The position numbers and the translations under genes are program-made. Under the pieces are notes generated by a model, which saw only the letters and a list, made by a program, of their open reading frames with translations, made no database searches and was not told where the DNA came from. Below are positions 10,238 to 16,115 of a stretch of 64,000 bases of DNA, piece by piece (within the stretch, counting starts at the first letter, position 1; each line of letters begins with the position of its first letter). The stretch is taken from the sequence record MN445185.1; one strand, 5' to 3'. This DNA is from Escherichia phage vB_EcoM_EC001.

Positions 10238-11245
10238 ATGGCGAAGCTCGTTTCGTTTTCAGCAGGGTTGGATTCCACCTGGATAATGTATCAGCTGCTA
10301 TGCAAAGCACCGGCCAATGAAGCACGACATGTCCGTCCTGCGTATTTCTCCATGTGGAATGGAGGTAACGCGAACTTCATGGAAATTCTTTGTAGCGTGG
10401 CCATTGTTGAACGGTTGATGGATAGACACCATGCACAAACCGAACATGTTACATGGGCGGTGCTCGGGGAAGAGAACTTCCAGCCTGTCGTTACCGCTGG
10501 ATATGCTAACGGCTGGTCGCCTCTGGTTCAGCAGGGCAATGTTGTTAACGGTCTCGCTAAACTGATGTGTGGTATTACGCGCAAACAGCACCACGCCTAT
10601 GCAGTTGTTGGTTGGAATAAGCTAGATGCGTTGGAGAATAGTCTAGAGCTGGGAGATTGGACATTAGACGAGTACGCTCGCTTAAAGAACCTCTATAGCG
10701 AATTGATGTATTTCCAAGATCATGCCGGTCGCGTTCCACCGCTTCTAACACCTGCGTGGGATAAAGAGAAACTGGAAATGTGGCAGGAGTTGCCGGAAGA
10801 TATTCGTAGGTTGGTACAGGTCAGTAACAACAACAACTACGAATTCGCGATAGACCGTGAGAATAACGTGCTCATCGTTTATGCCCATCCGTCGGCAAAG
10901 TCGCAGAATTATCGTAGTCTTGGTATTACACCGTCAGTGGGATGGGAGATTAAAATCAACGATGCTTACAGACGGGTATGGTGTTCTGCTCTCGGTAGTG
11001 CTATTTCTGCTATGGGTTTGGGCGTACCGGCTTTTGCTAACTTTAAGGACCCGGAAAGAAACCACACGACCTTTACGGTAAGTGAAGATACTAACCGGTT
11101 ATGTATCACATCGTTTACCGCGGAAGAGTGGTGCGCGTATGCGCCACATTTTAAAGCGCTTCAGGAGAAAGAAAAAGAGATAGCGAAAAATGCCAAAGCA
11201 AGTAAAGCTGTGGACGCTCCAACTGGCGAAGTGGCGGATAGCTGA
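10238..11245 (+). CDS. Hypothetical protein with divergent PP-loop-like motif
   Basis: N-terminal SFSAGLDST resembles the SGGxDS PP-loop; GAGG SD. Confidence 0.55.
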   Translation: MAKLVSFSAGLDSTWIMYQLLCKAPANEARHVRPAYFSMWNGGNANFMEILCSVAIVERLMDRHHAQTEHVTWAVLGEENFQPVVTAGYANGWSPLVQQGNVVNGLAKLMCGITRKQHHAYAVVGWNKLDALENSLELGDWTLDEYARLKNLYSELMYFQDHAGRVPPLLTPAWDKEKLEMWQELPEDIRRLVQVSNNNNYEFAIDRENNVLIVYAHPSAKSQNYRSLGITPSVGWEIKINDAYRRVWCSALGSAISAMGLGVPAFANFKDPERNHTTFTVSEDTNRLCITSFTAEEWCAYAPHFKALQEKEKEIAKNAKASKAVDAPTGEVADS

Positions 11246-11573
11246 AAAACGGAATTTGCCAAAGCTGGATATAACGGTTAAGTCGGGGCTGAAATATTTG
11301 GCACCCGACTGGGACTTTCTGATGGACTACAAGAAGTCTGACAAAGGCCCCGACGCAGAAGCTGCGTATACCAAACGCTACCTGCAGAAACTTAGTCGGT
11401 TGTTTGATGAAGACACTGATAAGTTGATAGAGATTCTCCGCCAGGGCGAGGTCGTACTAATGTGCTATTGCCCACCGGGGAAATTCTGTCATCGCCACTT
11501 GCTAGTTTCTTACCTTATTGAAATCGGTGAGTGGTTCGGTTATGAAGTAATTTACATGGGCGAGTTATCGTAA
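11190..11573 (+). CDS. DUF488-like hypothetical protein
   Basis: C-terminal MCYCPPGKFCHRHLL resembles the DUF488 signature; overlaps the upstream gene by 56 bp. Confidence 0.5.
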   Translation: MPKQVKLWTLQLAKWRIAEKRNLPKLDITVKSGLKYLAPDWDFLMDYKKSDKGPDAEAAYTKRYLQKLSRLFDEDTDKLIEILRQGEVVLMCYCPPGKFCHRHLLVSYLIEIGEWFGYEVIYMGELS

Positions 11574-11980: not shown

Positions 11981-11993
11981 CAGCGTACGAGTA

Positions 11994-12035
11994 GGCTACC
12001 ACACGATCATATGTGTGGTAGCTTATTTTTTTGTT
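11994..12035 (+). terminator. Rho-independent terminator
   Basis: Stem ggctaccacac / gtgtggtagc, then a T-run. Confidence 0.65.
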
Positions 12036-12048
12036 TCTGGAGGCGTTA

Positions 12049-12588
12049 ATGGCAGACCGCTATCAGCCCGACCTAACACTGAGTTCAAAAGCGCTAGTCT
12101 TAGCGCTTATCAATCATGACAATAATCTGTCACTTACTGATAAAGAGATTGTGATTAGGGATATTGATGCGAACGCTTCACCAGACATCATCCCGAAGAA
12201 CACACAGGCAAGCGTGGCCAAAGCACGTAAGCCAAATGGGAAAACCGTGACAGTCTATTATGACCGGTTAAGTGCGTCTACCGTGCTAGACAGTTTTCAG
12301 CCGCTATTGGTGTCCTTAGACGGAACCGAAACGGACATTCAGCAAATTGCCAGTGTGATTAACGGTTACTGCGGTACAAACTTGTCAGCAGCAGACTTAC
12401 AGTCTGCGCCAATCGTGGTCAGCGACGATTTTACCCTGGTGAATATCACTGGCGATTCCCCAGCATGGCTTGGGACATTTATCGCAACCCTGTTTACCAA
12501 AAATGAGTACGTTCTTTCAACTGACACTGACACGGTGCTGTGTCTGGATGAGAACACTGTGCTCGTACTGACTGACGAGGAAGAGTAA
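12049..12588 (+). CDS. Hypothetical protein
   Basis: ATG 12049 with GGAGG SD; track TTG start 12031 lies in the terminator T-run. Confidence 0.6.
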   Translation: MADRYQPDLTLSSKALVLALINHDNNLSLTDKEIVIRDIDANASPDIIPKNTQASVAKARKPNGKTVTVYYDRLSASTVLDSFQPLLVSLDGTETDIQQIASVINGYCGTNLSAADLQSAPIVVSDDFTLVNITGDSPAWLGTFIATLFTKNEYVLSTDTDTVLCLDENTVLVLTDEEE

Positions 12589-13073
12589 TGGCCAGCCCAG
12601 TTAAAAAGCAAACATTTGAGAGCTTACCATTTTATACCGATATCACCAACGTGAAAGATGGGATGTTCTTGTTTATCAAAGATGGGAAAGCGTATCAGTA
12701 CCCGCTCGAGATGTTGGGTGTCCAGAAGGTTGCTCAGGGTGTCGTTATTCGTGATGCGGCGTATGAGTTGGAAGCGGCAGCAGCCACTGATTGGTACCTA
12801 GGACTGTCGCAACCGGAAACCGATCTCACTATTAAACCTGATGGAGTATTGGGGGCATTTCGGTACACGCTCAACCTGACTATTCTTCAGGGAACGGGAG
12901 CCAACAAAATTAACTGGCCTTCCAACGTGAAGTTCCCCCATGATGCATACCCGGTGCTGTCGTACCAGAAAGGGAAATCGGACATGATTACCCTGACTAC
13001 AATCGACGGCGGTTACACCTGGAAAGGTGGCGTTAGTGGAACAGGATATACAGAATGGGTAGAAACTCCTTAA
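12588..13073 (+). CDS. Hypothetical protein
   Basis: ATG overlaps the upstream stop. Confidence 0.6.
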   Translation: MASPVKKQTFESLPFYTDITNVKDGMFLFIKDGKAYQYPLEMLGVQKVAQGVVIRDAAYELEAAAATDWYLGLSQPETDLTIKPDGVLGAFRYTLNLTILQGTGANKINWPSNVKFPHDAYPVLSYQKGKSDMITLTTIDGGYTWKGGVSGTGYTEWVETP

Positions 13074-16072
13074 TCGCAGTACGGACAGGGATTAACAATG
13101 CCCTGTCGATGGCCTACGGTCATCAGGACTTCGTTCGTCGAAATACCGGCTTAACTAACGACGCCCACAATGACCATTATCTGATTAACCCAGAAGGGGT
13201 GCTATCTAATAACCGGCATTTCATTGCTGACTCCATGGCAGTGTATCAACCTAATGGTGACGCCACCACAGAAGGTCAATCGTTGCTGATTATTGGGTAT
13301 TGCCACATGTACATCGCTACCAAAAACCAGATGTGGTTAGATGCGGCGATTCGTGCATGGGAAGCGTACGCTACCTACTATTACGCAGGTCAGGCCATTC
13401 CTGAGTCACCGCAACGTTGGATTTGTAACTGGCTAGTTAACGGTAAAGAACCGGTGCTGTCAGACTATCCAGTGCATCCGTCCGAGCCAACCCACGGTGG
13501 TTACAAGTGTGTACCGGTGACGTTTACGAACGGGCGTTGCCAGATACCCCAAGGCGCACCATTCTTTGGTGAATATCTGAACAATTTCTTTTCTGCGCAT
13601 CGTGGCCATCCTACTTGGGGTGCGGTTAATGCCGACGTACAGAAAATTAAGGAATCGGAAGACGGGTTAATTGACTGGTCTAAAGTCCCTGATTACTTAA
13701 TCGTCAATCCAGAGAAACCTTACGATGTAAAAGCGTGGGTGGACTGGAACACGATGCTAAACGACCCAACCGGATATACACCAATGTGGGGCGGTTCTAC
13801 CTCGAAAGGTCCGTTGTACGAGCCTGACTGGTTTGTTGTGTGGACAGGTGAGAAGGTTCAGGATGGCGAGGTCATTGAATCTGGGTTGCCTGATGCCCAG
13901 AAAGGAACCGTACAATTAAAGGACACCAGTATCAACGGTGTGTATTTGATTAACTACGCTTCCCAGGTGCCAGTAGAGCACGGCGGGTATTTGTTTGGCC
14001 GTAATGAGCCATGGCACAACCGTCCTGTGCACACACCGTTAAAAGGCTCTGTCAACCAAATGGGTAACGCGGCAGATGCGGAAGTGTGGTTTATTGATGC
14101 CTGTTATCTGCTCTGGCGTATCACAGGTGAACCGCGCTATAAAGCCGCACTAGACTCTGTGTTCTATACAGCGCATGAATACACGTATATCGATGCGAAG
14201 GACAAGTTTTTCCGACGTTCTAAGCTAGCCGAAACACCATTTACAGATGGTATCTCGTACGACTATAAATACCCCAGCACTGTTGAGGTCGCTTACAGTC
14301 GTGATGAAAATGGTGATATTGTGTTCCGTTCTGAGAAAGCTGTGCAGAACTTTATGGAACAGCAAGCCGTGCGTTTCAGGATAAACAGTCAATCGAAGTT
14401 ACGTGTGACGTATGGCGGTGTTTGCGACAACGGTGATGCGCTTGCGTGTAAAGTGATGGTGGATATCAACCCCGTTAAAGCGGATACTGAAGAAGTAAAC
14501 TGGTACGGCTGTACGCTTCCAGGATCAACATCGATGGAAGTAAAACAGCATGACATCGGTTTAGGGCATCTGGCCAGAATGACTAATCCGGCCAACGGCG
14601 AAGATTACATCATTGCCGATGCGCGAGCATGTTCAGATTACGGTGGGTGTACGTGGCAGGAGAAGTTTGAGAGCAACATCTACGATGGTCGTTCAGGCAC
14701 AATCGTAGAAGCGTTATTCCCGAACGACGATGCGGGTTTCATTATCGGTTTCTGGTTAACCGATGCCGGTGTTGCACCCCCACAGTCAATTGTCTATCGT
14801 GCCGATGGTGATTTCAACTTCCGTTTCGAAGATACCGACAAGTGGCGTTGGTGGTGGATGTTGCCCGCGACTAACGGGGAATGGAAACAGGTTATTATTC
14901 GCCCTGAAGACGCAACACTCTCGGGCTATCAACCCGACCACGATACCGACGTCGAACCAAAACCGGCTGCGCCAAACTATACAACTATCGATCGGGTAAC
15001 CATACTGCCCGATTCGGCTGTGGAGAATGCGCACTTTAGCTGGTATTGCGTAAACGATGTTCCGCCACTGTTTAATGGAGACGATGGTTGGACGTTAACG
15101 TTCCGTATTGTAATTCGGGGAGGTTCTGCATTTACGGGTAAAGTGGGCGATTGTACGATAAAAGATTACCGTCTTGACTCGCTCGCGTATTGTCCAGGAA
15201 CGATACCGTTCTCGAACATTTATTCGGAAGGAACGTATCAGCTAGGTGCATGGCACGGGATGCCGTATCCTGGCTATCAGTATCCGTTTATGTACACCAT
15301 ACACACCGATGATCGCTACAAAGTCTGGCTCTTAAATCAGATTCGGTTTATGCACGATTCACAAACCAACTACCAGGCGCAGCTAGGTGAGTTAGGTCCA
15401 GGTTGTGCGGCGTATATTTGGAACCGTTGGGATAACTACTCTTACGGCCCGGCAGATACGTGGACAACGTTCCATTGGGGAGATGGACATCCGTGGGCAG
15501 GTTATCAGCCGCGCGCGTATAACGCCGCTGCGCGTTGTTGGTACGAATTAGTTGTGCGTGGTAAAGAGGTTCCACCTGAGCTAGTAGTGTACGTTGAAAA
15601 TTGGGCTAAGTGGCTCGTAGGGTTCTTAGACCGCTTTGACAACCACACTCCGAATGAATTCCCTACAGCACCAAATAAACCGGTATGGGTAGAGAACGAT
15701 TTCACAGCACATATGTGTGCGCTCTGGATAGCAGGCAGCGCTTATGCGGCAATGGCTGGCTGTACAGTGGAAGGGTTGAGCCGTATTATGGATATGGGGA
15801 TGAAAGAGATGGGTGACAACTTCACCGTCACAGACATTCCAGGAAAAGCCATTAACGGTGCCTGGTCTCCGTGGGCAAACCCTACCACGGATAACGGTCA
15901 GGCTTTTGGGTTTTATACTGGAGAAGCGATGCGTGCAATCGGGTTGTATCTCCTCTATAAAGAACACGGCCCAGGACATGATATTTATCGTGACTTGGCA
16001 ATACCCGACCACACAACAGCTTCACTCGATATAACGTTTACTATCCCAGACGATCCGCTCGAAACTAATTAA
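13055..16072 (+). CDS. Large Trp/Tyr-rich hypothetical protein (1005 aa), possible glycan-acting or structural protein
   Basis: 3-kb uninterrupted ORF; aromatic-rich composition; no motif recognised. Confidence 0.7.
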   Translation: MGRNSLIAVRTGINNALSMAYGHQDFVRRNTGLTNDAHNDHYLINPEGVLSNNRHFIADSMAVYQPNGDATTEGQSLLIIGYCHMYIATKNQMWLDAAIRAWEAYATYYYAGQAIPESPQRWICNWLVNGKEPVLSDYPVHPSEPTHGGYKCVPVTFTNGRCQIPQGAPFFGEYLNNFFSAHRGHPTWGAVNADVQKIKESEDGLIDWSKVPDYLIVNPEKPYDVKAWVDWNTMLNDPTGYTPMWGGSTSKGPLYEPDWFVVWTGEKVQDGEVIESGLPDAQKGTVQLKDTSINGVYLINYASQVPVEHGGYLFGRNEPWHNRPVHTPLKGSVNQMGNAADAEVWFIDACYLLWRITGEPRYKAALDSVFYTAHEYTYIDAKDKFFRRSKLAETPFTDGISYDYKYPSTVEVAYSRDENGDIVFRSEKAVQNFMEQQAVRFRINSQSKLRVTYGGVCDNGDALACKVMVDINPVKADTEEVNWYGCTLPGSTSMEVKQHDIGLGHLARMTNPANGEDYIIADARACSDYGGCTWQEKFESNIYDGRSGTIVEALFPNDDAGFIIGFWLTDAGVAPPQSIVYRADGDFNFRFEDTDKWRWWWMLPATNGEWKQVIIRPEDATLSGYQPDHDTDVEPKPAAPNYTTIDRVTILPDSAVENAHFSWYCVNDVPPLFNGDDGWTLTFRIVIRGGSAFTGKVGDCTIKDYRLDSLAYCPGTIPFSNIYSEGTYQLGAWHGMPYPGYQYPFMYTIHTDDRYKVWLLNQIRFMHDSQTNYQAQLGELGPGCAAYIWNRWDNYSYGPADTWTTFHWGDGHPWAGYQPRAYNAAARCWYELVVRGKEVPPELVVYVENWAKWLVGFLDRFDNHTPNEFPTAPNKPVWVENDFTAHMCALWIAGSAYAAMAGCTVEGLSRIMDMGMKEMGDNFTVTDIPGKAINGAWSPWANPTTDNGQAFGFYTGEAMRAIGLYLLYKEHGPGHDIYRDLAIPDHTTASLDITFTIPDDPLETN

Positions 16073-16077
16073 GTGTA

Positions 16078-16115
16078 TACCAGCTATCCTTCGGGGTGGC
16101 TGGTACGCTTTATTT
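16078..16115 (+). terminator. Rho-independent terminator
   Basis: Stem accagc..cc / gg..gctggt with ttcg loop, then a T-run. Confidence 0.55.

Follow-up and report, generated by a model that had tools for sequence, protein, structure and literature searches.

A conserved tail protein of SPN3US-like phages with a predicted glycosidase-type barrel and a small upstream partner

Introduction

Why does a single 3-kb gene, rich in tryptophan and tyrosine, sit in the middle of a block of small phage genes? The question is raised by a stretch of 64,000 nucleotides from Escherichia phage vB_EcoM_EC001 (sequence record MN445185.1), which is referred to here in its whole length as the window, and in which positions 13055-16072 of the plus strand encode a protein of 1005 amino acids. 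An earlier note, made from the letters of the DNA, had proposed a carbohydrate-active enzyme such as a depolymerase, or an injected or structural protein encoded away from the fibre clusters. We found that the gene is the ortholog of gp124 of the Salmonella jumbo phage SPN3US and that the model of its product contains a glycosidase-type barrel. On balance, we favour a glycan-cleaving enzyme that is mounted on the tail through gp123, the small protein encoded immediately upstream. As an annotated and proteomically located tail protein of SPN3US, gp124 was already known, and a protein of this kind is to be expected in a phage. New here are the fold assignment, the candidate catalytic pair, the proposed adaptor cassette, the gpI fusion as an alternative to it, and the wide spread of the family.

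Results

The large gene is orthologous to SPN3US gene 124

The open reading frame (ORF) at 13055-16072 starts with ATG, is preceded by AGGA 9-12 nt 5' of the start codon, and encodes a 113.4-kDa protein with a pI of 4.9. No rival ORF longer than 128 amino acids was found over this interval on either strand. A frame of 1005 codons is far above chance in DNA of 48% GC, and full-length homologs of the protein number in the hundreds. The genes flanking it on the plus strand have products of 50-335 amino acids. Among the 30 window ORFs of at least 250 amino acids, the protein has the highest tryptophan content (3.8%; mean 1.5%, standard deviation 0.84). Tyrosine accounts for 5.9% of its residues, and W, Y and F together for 13.6%, compared with 10.2 +/- 2.2% in the same 30 ORFs. 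The size and composition that the earlier note had singled out were thus borne out. Candidate baseplate and fibre genes, the homologs of SPN3US gp168-170, are located about 35 kb downstream on the opposite strand. Therefore, the gene is indeed encoded apart from the fibre cluster.

The nucleotide sequence of 13055-16072 is 96-97% identical to that of 33 SPN3US-like jumbo phages (Seoulvirus), with Salmonella phage JN03 as the top match, and the proteins show 97-98% amino acid identity. The window thus belongs to a jumbo phage of the SPN3US type. The identity to SPN3US gp124 (SPN3US_0124, AEP83957, 'tail-associated protein', 113.7 kDa) is 97% across the 1005 residues. The two proteins also agree in length and in neighbours, and the gene order gp123-gp124-gp125 is common to the window, SPN3US, Proteus phage 7 and JN03. 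The loci differ in the partner gene and in the first 14 residues of the protein, where the window carries the other allele, that of JN03 and of E. coli phage Lh1B. The record of Proteus phage 7 labels its copy 'glycosyl hydrolase'. PHROG 2871 ('tail protein') matched residues 6-993 with E=0, while the single sequence had no match in Pfam, NCBIfam or PDB. A search of PDB with a 50-sequence profile was likewise negative, so that neither a solved structure nor a characterised activity was found for the family by these PDB searches, and our literature search found no paper that discusses SPN3US gp124 by name.

SPN3US gp124 is located in the tail

The tail location is known from the orthologs in SPN3US and rV5, the window phage being known from its genes alone. 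In CsCl-purified SPN3US virions, gp124 was detected with 39 peptides, 73 spectra and 48% coverage (PMC5694885, Supplementary Table 1). The wild type yielded 530 peptide-spectrum matches (PSMs) of gp124, compared with 20 in tailless heads of 255(am), and the protein was placed in the class 'Tail' (PMC10052503, Table S2). The mutant 255(am) is a tail-tube amber mutant (PMC10052503). After normalisation, the ratio of tailless heads to wild type is 0.053. The small protein gp123 (16.5 kDa) behaved in the same way, with 55 PSMs versus 0 in tailless heads and the class 'Tail' (PMC10052503, Table S2). Similarly, rV5 virions contained gp42, the homolog in that phage, together with its small partner, gp43 (PMC3606486). 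We regard it as very probable that the 1005-residue protein is a structural protein of the tail.

These data also bear on the idea that the protein is ejected from the head into the cell, as many SPN3US proteins are. The ejection proteins carried by SPN3US amount to more than 40 MDa, and this general region contains many of the genes for them, e.g. gp138-154. However, gp124 is nearly absent from tailless heads (ratio 0.053), and 'injected' is therefore not supported. The authors of the proteomic study assigned gp124 to the tail, the SPN3US tables consulted record no propeptide-type processing of it, and homologs belong to the tail modules of small phages lacking an ejection bolus. An ejected head protein is thus already contradicted and has hardly any probability left. 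Of the two possibilities that the earlier note had joined as 'injected or structural', only the structural one was upheld.

Per unit mass, gp124 has a spectral count of 0.64, and the portal, which is present in 12 copies, has one of 0.93-1.29. This semi-quantitative comparison therefore suggests roughly six copies of gp124 per virion.

The model combines a split (alpha/alpha)6 barrel with two insertions

The AlphaFold2 model, computed from a 50-sequence alignment, was confident, with a mean predicted local distance difference test (pLDDT) value of 88.3 and a predicted template modelling (TM) score (pTM) of 0.86. Helices were predicted at residues 3-29, 72-109, 340-378 and 756-971, and beta-rich segments at 126-335 and 401-705. 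The variable N-terminal peptide (residues 1-17; 13055-13105) is the least conserved part of the protein and may serve for docking. Barrel segment 1 (residues 31-125; 13145-13429) contains helices 72-89 and 92-109. It is separated by insertion 1, a beta-rich part between barrel helices that holds the variable residues 186-269 (residues 126-335; 13430-14059), from barrel segment 2 (residues 336-400; 14060-14254) with helices 340-357 and 360-378. Insertion 2 (residues 401-705; 14255-15169) consists of two tandem beta-jelly-rolls and includes the invariant D593 and the motif WRWWW. Barrel segment 3 (residues 706-985; 15170-16009) contributes helices 756-777, 817-834, 841-860, 885-901, 908-922 and 952-971, and accounts for 41 of the 102 invariant columns of the 50-sequence alignment.

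The structural matches of the model included 3ren (GH8 / GH126, score 25.8), the Pseudomonas putida BcsZ homolog 4q2b (GH8, 24.9), YteR (GH105, 23.9), CelA 1cem (GH8, 23.8) and various GH76, GH88 and GH48 enzymes (22-23). The (alpha/alpha)6 barrel fold of glycoside hydrolase family GH8 (clan GH-M), to which the protein comes closest, is thus present in the model. By Foldseek, the arrangement of barrel plus sandwiches resembled GH116 and Cel48F. The jelly rolls matched the carbohydrate-binding module (CBM) family CBM11 (6r31, 1v0a) with a probability of 1.00 and a target TM of 0.54-0.55, and tandem CBM22 (4xup) with a probability of 0.72. Insertion 2 is therefore modelled as a CBM-like pair, a resemblance of fold from which sugar binding is predicted. 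From the AlphaFold2 layout and the fold matches together, the protein is therefore modelled as a discontinuous toroid of the glycosidase type that bears two insertions, of which the second is CBM-like. The fold search that the earlier note had called for was thus productive, as was the match to PHROG 2871, whereas the hidden Markov models (HMMs) of Pfam and NCBIfam came back empty.

The similarity to known enzymes has clear bounds. GH8 proteins (BcsZ 3QXF, CelA 1CEM) share the barrel fold with the window protein, but there is no significant sequence similarity, and two insertions, 210 and 305 residues long, interrupt the barrel of the window protein. GH8 enzymes are secreted or periplasmic, whereas gp124 is a virion component. 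The (alpha/alpha)6 glycosidases that carry accessory beta-sandwiches (GH116 TxGH116, GH48 Cel48F and GH15 glucoamylases) have another domain order and a whole-chain TM of 0.1-0.2, and the sandwiches of the window protein are inserted within the barrel sequence.

Conservation follows this layout. The barrel segments are the most conserved parts, and the variable ones are the N-terminal 30 residues, residues 186-269, residues 443-524 and the C-terminal tail. Residues 443-524, the first jelly roll, form the most variable internal region, and one homolog (P0116) has an insertion of RCC1 repeats there.

The protein is tail-borne, as are the tailspike depolymerases such as the P22 tailspike, CBA120 TSP1-4 and the K1F endosialidase. 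Both have a carbohydrate-enzyme fold at the tail periphery, and both show modular attachment via N-terminal or adaptor domains (Tail_spike_N in one partner protein, the TSP4-like fold of gp123). In contrast to the tailspikes, the window protein has neither a beta-helix nor a beta-propeller and gives no sign of a trimer, and its anchor would be a separate small protein. The enzyme body is hypervariable in classical tailspikes but conserved across host genera in the gp124 family. The model contains no right-handed parallel beta-helix catalytic domain, and the putative catalytic part is the most conserved one across host genera; the putative enzyme is therefore unlike a classical serotype-specific capsule depolymerase. 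Hence, the proposal of a carbohydrate-active enzyme gained a glycosidase-type barrel with CBM-like sandwiches, from which an activity may be expected.

Invariant residues mark a candidate catalytic pair

We examined conservation in an alignment of 181 homologs, which reached down to 26-30% identity (rV5, Vibrio phages, Goslar, GAP52). E73, Q75, D341, R387, R416, D593, Q770, W789, R791 and R820 are invariant, and E343 is kept in 180 of the 181. Two stretches around these residues resemble GH8. The top local match by hhalign paired TTEGQS (residues 71-76; 13265-13282) with TSEGQS of BcsZ, although this match covers six residues with an E value of 0.046 and is not significant by itself. We take TSEGQS to be the motif that holds the GH8 catalytic acid, E55 in BcsZ. 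By eye, NAADAEVW (residues 338-345) resembles SASDGDVW in the GH8 signature region of BcsZ, the core NAADAE (residues 338-343; 14066-14083) corresponding to SASDGD. TTEGQS and NAADAE each open the same helices as in the GH8 order, the second and the fourth.

Enzyme or binding protein

It should be pointed out that several observations weigh against a tail-mounted glycosidase. PF01270 (GH8) had no match to the full protein, to 50 family members or to six insertion-free spliced barrels (E up to 10), and a Pfam scan of the 50 members returned only marginal hits to GH76 (E 0.0016, two members) and GH47. A rescan of the six spliced barrels gave no hit to any family. Comparison of the barrel with a BcsZ alignment by hhalign, both global and local, gave a probability of <=1%, which is not significant; the BcsZ profile used was shallow, being made from authentic E. 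coli BcsZ and homologs of which only those with at least 60% identity were listed. No catalytic base could be assigned in the 181-homolog alignment. The GH8a base would correspond to residue 818, at which 164 of the 181 homologs have Gln and 16 have Glu. Nor is the (alpha/alpha)6 fold diagnostic, since it also serves epimerases, terpene cyclases and non-enzymes. Furthermore, the putative catalytic part is conserved over phages of Salmonella, E. coli, Vibrio, Pseudomonas, Aeromonas and others. Such strong conservation across hosts is unusual for a depolymerase, and it would fit a structural hub as well as an enzyme acting on a conserved glycan. The receptor of SPN3US is reported to be the flagellum (PMC11428620), and gp124 is therefore probably not the primary receptor binder in that phage. 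Finally, BP63-like genomes carry the cassette with the tail terminator gene on one side and sheath genes on the other.

A structural or lectin-like tail protein without catalysis, which binds a glycan but leaves it uncut or forms a hub bearing variable fibres, would readily accommodate the missing match to any GH family and the lack of an assigned base. It would also agree with the label 'tail fiber' or 'tail protein' in most records, and with a gp124 body that is strongly conserved across hosts while neighbouring fibre genes vary (conserved versus variable fibre genes: PMC8594841). However, both residues of the acidic pair are invariant and, by helix order, stand where GH8 has its acid and its signature Asp. 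The barrel also contains a cluster of invariant Arg, Gln and Trp residues, and its conservation exceeds that of the surface domains. Polar pocket residues kept so strictly are more typical of catalysis than of a scaffold. We consider this explanation a real but clearly minor possibility. Activity as a clan GH-M-type glycosidase has a moderate probability, and despite the GH8-like fold we do not file the protein as a member of GH8.

A small partner gene precedes the putative enzyme gene

Directly upstream lies a gene for a 161-residue homolog of gp123 (12588-13073, plus strand), whose stop overlaps the start of the putative enzyme gene by 19 nt. Inspection of ten contexts by hand showed a small gene of 157-261 codons at the same place in nine of them. 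The N-terminus of these partner proteins is variable, while about 100 residues at the C-terminus are conserved with the motif QGTGANKVTWP...W..G..P.LSY...D..TL...D.G..W.G. We then scanned the 71 IMG/VR loci that had enough upstream sequence with an HMM of the gp123 C-terminal domain. In 61 of them, a gp123-type domain was found on the same strand upstream of the enzyme gene, ending a median of 6 nt before its start, and the HMM found none elsewhere in the 71 loci. Eight of the ten exceptions are P2-like elements encoding a 1097-residue fusion, in which the first ~175 residues are the baseplate wedge protein gpI and the junction falls just ahead of the conserved GH..F..RNTG stretch. Another is Goslar-like and has its own N-terminal extension; the gp123 domain was not found in that extension of Goslar gp092. 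Natural fusions of the gp123 domain to the enzyme were not seen in any of 120 homologs.

The gp123 domain itself is widespread. A word-indexed homolog search with gp123 returned only two near-identical proteins, and an exhaustive profile search was used instead. The latter matched the C-terminal domain (window 12750-13050) to 13,750 cluster representatives at E<=1e-3, mostly at the C-termini of small proteins. Pfam has no model for the domain, and the PHROGs label such proteins 'tail fiber protein'. One partner protein carries the Pfam domain Tail_spike_N, and a P22-tailspike-like N-terminus has been reported for rV5 gp43 (PMC3606486). The model of gp123 resembles N-terminal docking domains, namely those of CBA120 TSP4, the proximal subunit of the long tail fibre and gp9, and its fold may recall the branched-fibre adaptors (T4 gp10-like and CBA120 TSP4 N-terminal domains). 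We infer that the small partner is an adaptor, of which the lineage-specific N-terminus would plug into the tail and the conserved domain would hold the enzyme. In the P2-like elements, the gpI fusion would do the same job with no adaptor.

As a separate observation on the domain, in the matched proteins (P0243-P0391) it is usually C-terminal in chains of 120-450 residues, but proteins of up to 2036 residues hold 2-5 copies of it in tandem.

The window homolog of gp123 is 41% identical to SPN3US gp123, as against ~97% for gp124. The allele of gp122 and gp123 in the window is shared, at 99% identity, only with JN03 and Lh1B. The boundary of the exchange falls inside gp124, the first 14 residues of which differ (MGRNSLIAVRTGIN in the window versus MRKFKISAKRHALN in SPN3US) and which is nearly identical afterwards. 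The N-terminal peptide of gp124 may be the docking element, and co-transfer of adaptor and peptide fits because the peptide would then be what docks. In the P2-like homologs, the fused gpI domain replaces this peptide.

The mosaic segment extends over about 12160-13095 and covers most of gp122, all of gp123 and the first 14 codons of gp124. It has the allele of JN03 and Lh1B and differs strongly from the corresponding part of SPN3US and of most further Seoulviruses, while its flanks are ~96% identical. In its 5' part, gp122 shows 75% identity to Erwinia phage Asesino.

The P2-like elements deserve a remark of their own. Contigs of 17-19.6 kb carry the 1097-residue gpI-enzyme fusion, e.g. L005 and L037:5473-8766, with similar cases in L038-L044 and L049. 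No head genes separate the replication gene (GPA) of L005 from gpX and the lysis and tail genes, which come immediately after it, and this contig could be a head-less, tailocin-like element.

The family spans diverse phages and prophages

The homolog search with the 1005-residue protein gave 308 database homologs, and tblastn detected the family in 538 phage records, most of them labelled 'tail fiber' or 'tail protein'. The architecture is kept whole at 26-60% identity, with 40-60% across phages of different host genera. Members occur in the baseplate-fibre block of rV5-like phages (gp42 of rV5 and LL12) and of phi92-like phages (gp141), the latter number being taken from the LL12 comparison (PMC7229145). 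The BASEL paper labels a phi92-like homolog 'lateral tail fiber protein with several glycosidase domains' (PMC8594841). Further members were found in Phapecoctavirus and the GAP31 group, the jumbo phage Goslar (gp092), 7-11-like podoviruses (GAP52_017), BP63-like myoviruses, 157-kb Vibrio phages and 84-kb Erwinia phages, and in prophages of Salmonella, Pseudomonas, Acinetobacter, Brenneria and Shewanella.

Where the context could be read, in P2/HP1-like, lambda-like, rV5-like and phi92-like genomes, the family gene adjoins baseplate or fibre genes. In an HP1/P2-like prophage, it comes after Baseplate_J and gpI and ahead of a fibre gene, and in a lambda-like phage it comes after the J-type tip protein. 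With the BP63-like arrangement also in view, the attachment site may be either the baseplate or the neck/collar, in SPN3US too.

These positions are informative for one more explanation, in which the enzyme would degrade the cell wall (peptidoglycan) or periplasmic glucan during envelope penetration and would not act on the outer surface. Its status as a tail component and its conservation over many Gram-negative hosts, which would suit a universal substrate, are in line with such a role. However, the family gene is never found at a central spike, hub or tape-measure position, but adjoins peripheral baseplate or fibre genes or is fused to gpI. About six peripheral copies, as estimated from spectral counts, would be atypical of a penetration enzyme, and we know of no peptidoglycan hydrolase that uses the (alpha/alpha)6 fold. 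A penetration enzyme is thus improbable.

Among the records matching the family, 23 are named 'Campylobacter'. 'Campylobacter phage' C11 and D1 (MG065652.1, MG065646.1) carry the rV5-type homolog with the pattern of identity and coordinates seen in E. coli rV5-like phages, and the host labels look doubtful.

A possible clue to function from phage N4 was pursued and discarded. The BASEL paper ties the dependence of Vequintavirinae on enterobacterial common antigen (ECA) to a fibre in which, as in N4 gp64, a 'poly-GlcNAc deacetylase' domain is present (PMC8594841). Between N4 gp64 ('tail assembly protein') and the product of the gene beside the enzyme homolog in the phi92-like phage EmilieFrey (L009:11901-13976 versus L015:6761-8011), there is 30% identity (E 1e-32), which bears out the link noted in that paper. 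The match thus concerns a neighbouring gene and not the gp124 family.

Surroundings of the gene

Two terminator-like hairpins were found on the plus strand by consensus scan. The first (11989-12028), a 17-bp stem followed by a T run, lies just upstream of gp122, and the second (16078-16105), a 12-bp GC-rich stem with a T-rich tail, begins 6 nt past the gp124 stop codon. They bracket the homologs of gp122, gp123 and gp124 and therefore suggest a single three-gene transcription unit.

The first gene of this apparent unit (12031-12588, plus strand) encodes the 185-residue gp122 homolog, which matches Pfam DUF7941 (E 1.5e-18) and PHROG 2935/1037 'virion structural protein'. SPN3US gp122 gave 22 spectra in wild-type virions versus 0 in tailless heads, yet the authors listed it as non-virion (PMC10052503). 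By DUF7941 and PHROG 2935-1037, the gp122 homolog corresponds to the SPN3US head 'paralog family B'. In Goslar, gp091 has the same PHROGs and directly follows the enzyme homolog gp092 (L012:8975-9502).

Further upstream on the plus strand, the 127-residue gp120 homolog (11190-11573) matched the Pfam family DUF488-N3a, 'active DUF488-N3 subclade' (E 7e-12), where the SPN3US label is only hypothetical protein. The 335-residue gp119 homolog (10238-11245) ranks second in tryptophan among the large ORFs (3.3%); it has no Pfam match, and a PP-loop-like SFSAGLDS motif was recognised at its start by eye.

Discussion

The mechanism that we favour, with somewhat better than even confidence in it as a whole, would proceed as follows. 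About six copies of the enzyme are probably mounted on the tail, with the gp123 homolog as the mount, whose conserved docking-type beta domain would hold the variable N-terminal peptide of the enzyme. When the particle contacts a cell or matrix, a surface polysaccharide would be held by the CBM-like domains and cut by the barrel, in which Glu73 would probably act as the general acid. The glycan layer would thereby be thinned, and the tail could reach the cell surface after the primary flagellar contact.

A broader reading can be put forward only tentatively. The gp124 family may represent an unclassified GH family, GH8-like in fold and beyond the reach of sequence profiles, which together with its adaptor would form a mobile two-gene 'plug-in' cassette directed at a conserved glycan. 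Such a cassette may be distributed over more than 500 sequenced myo-, sipho- and podoviruses and P2-like elements, and its target may be shared across Gammaproteobacteria and not be a serotype-specific capsule. Cellulose or phosphoethanolamine-cellulose, poly-N-acetylglucosamine (PNAG), and a polymer of the lipopolysaccharide (LPS) core or ECA-like type may be considered as candidate targets.

The odd large gene of the window is thus a known tail protein of SPN3US-like phages, gp124, for which the structural argument now favours a glycan-active enzyme. The model phages SPN3US, rV5, phi92, Goslar and 7-11 all carry this conserved, uncharacterised tail protein, which has no Pfam or CAZy assignment. 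If it does cut a conserved surface or matrix polysaccharide, this would help to explain how broad-host-range and flagellotropic phages cross glycan layers. The protein would then be a candidate broad-spectrum anti-biofilm enzyme, and the adaptor-enzyme pair would offer a natural module for the engineering of phage tails.

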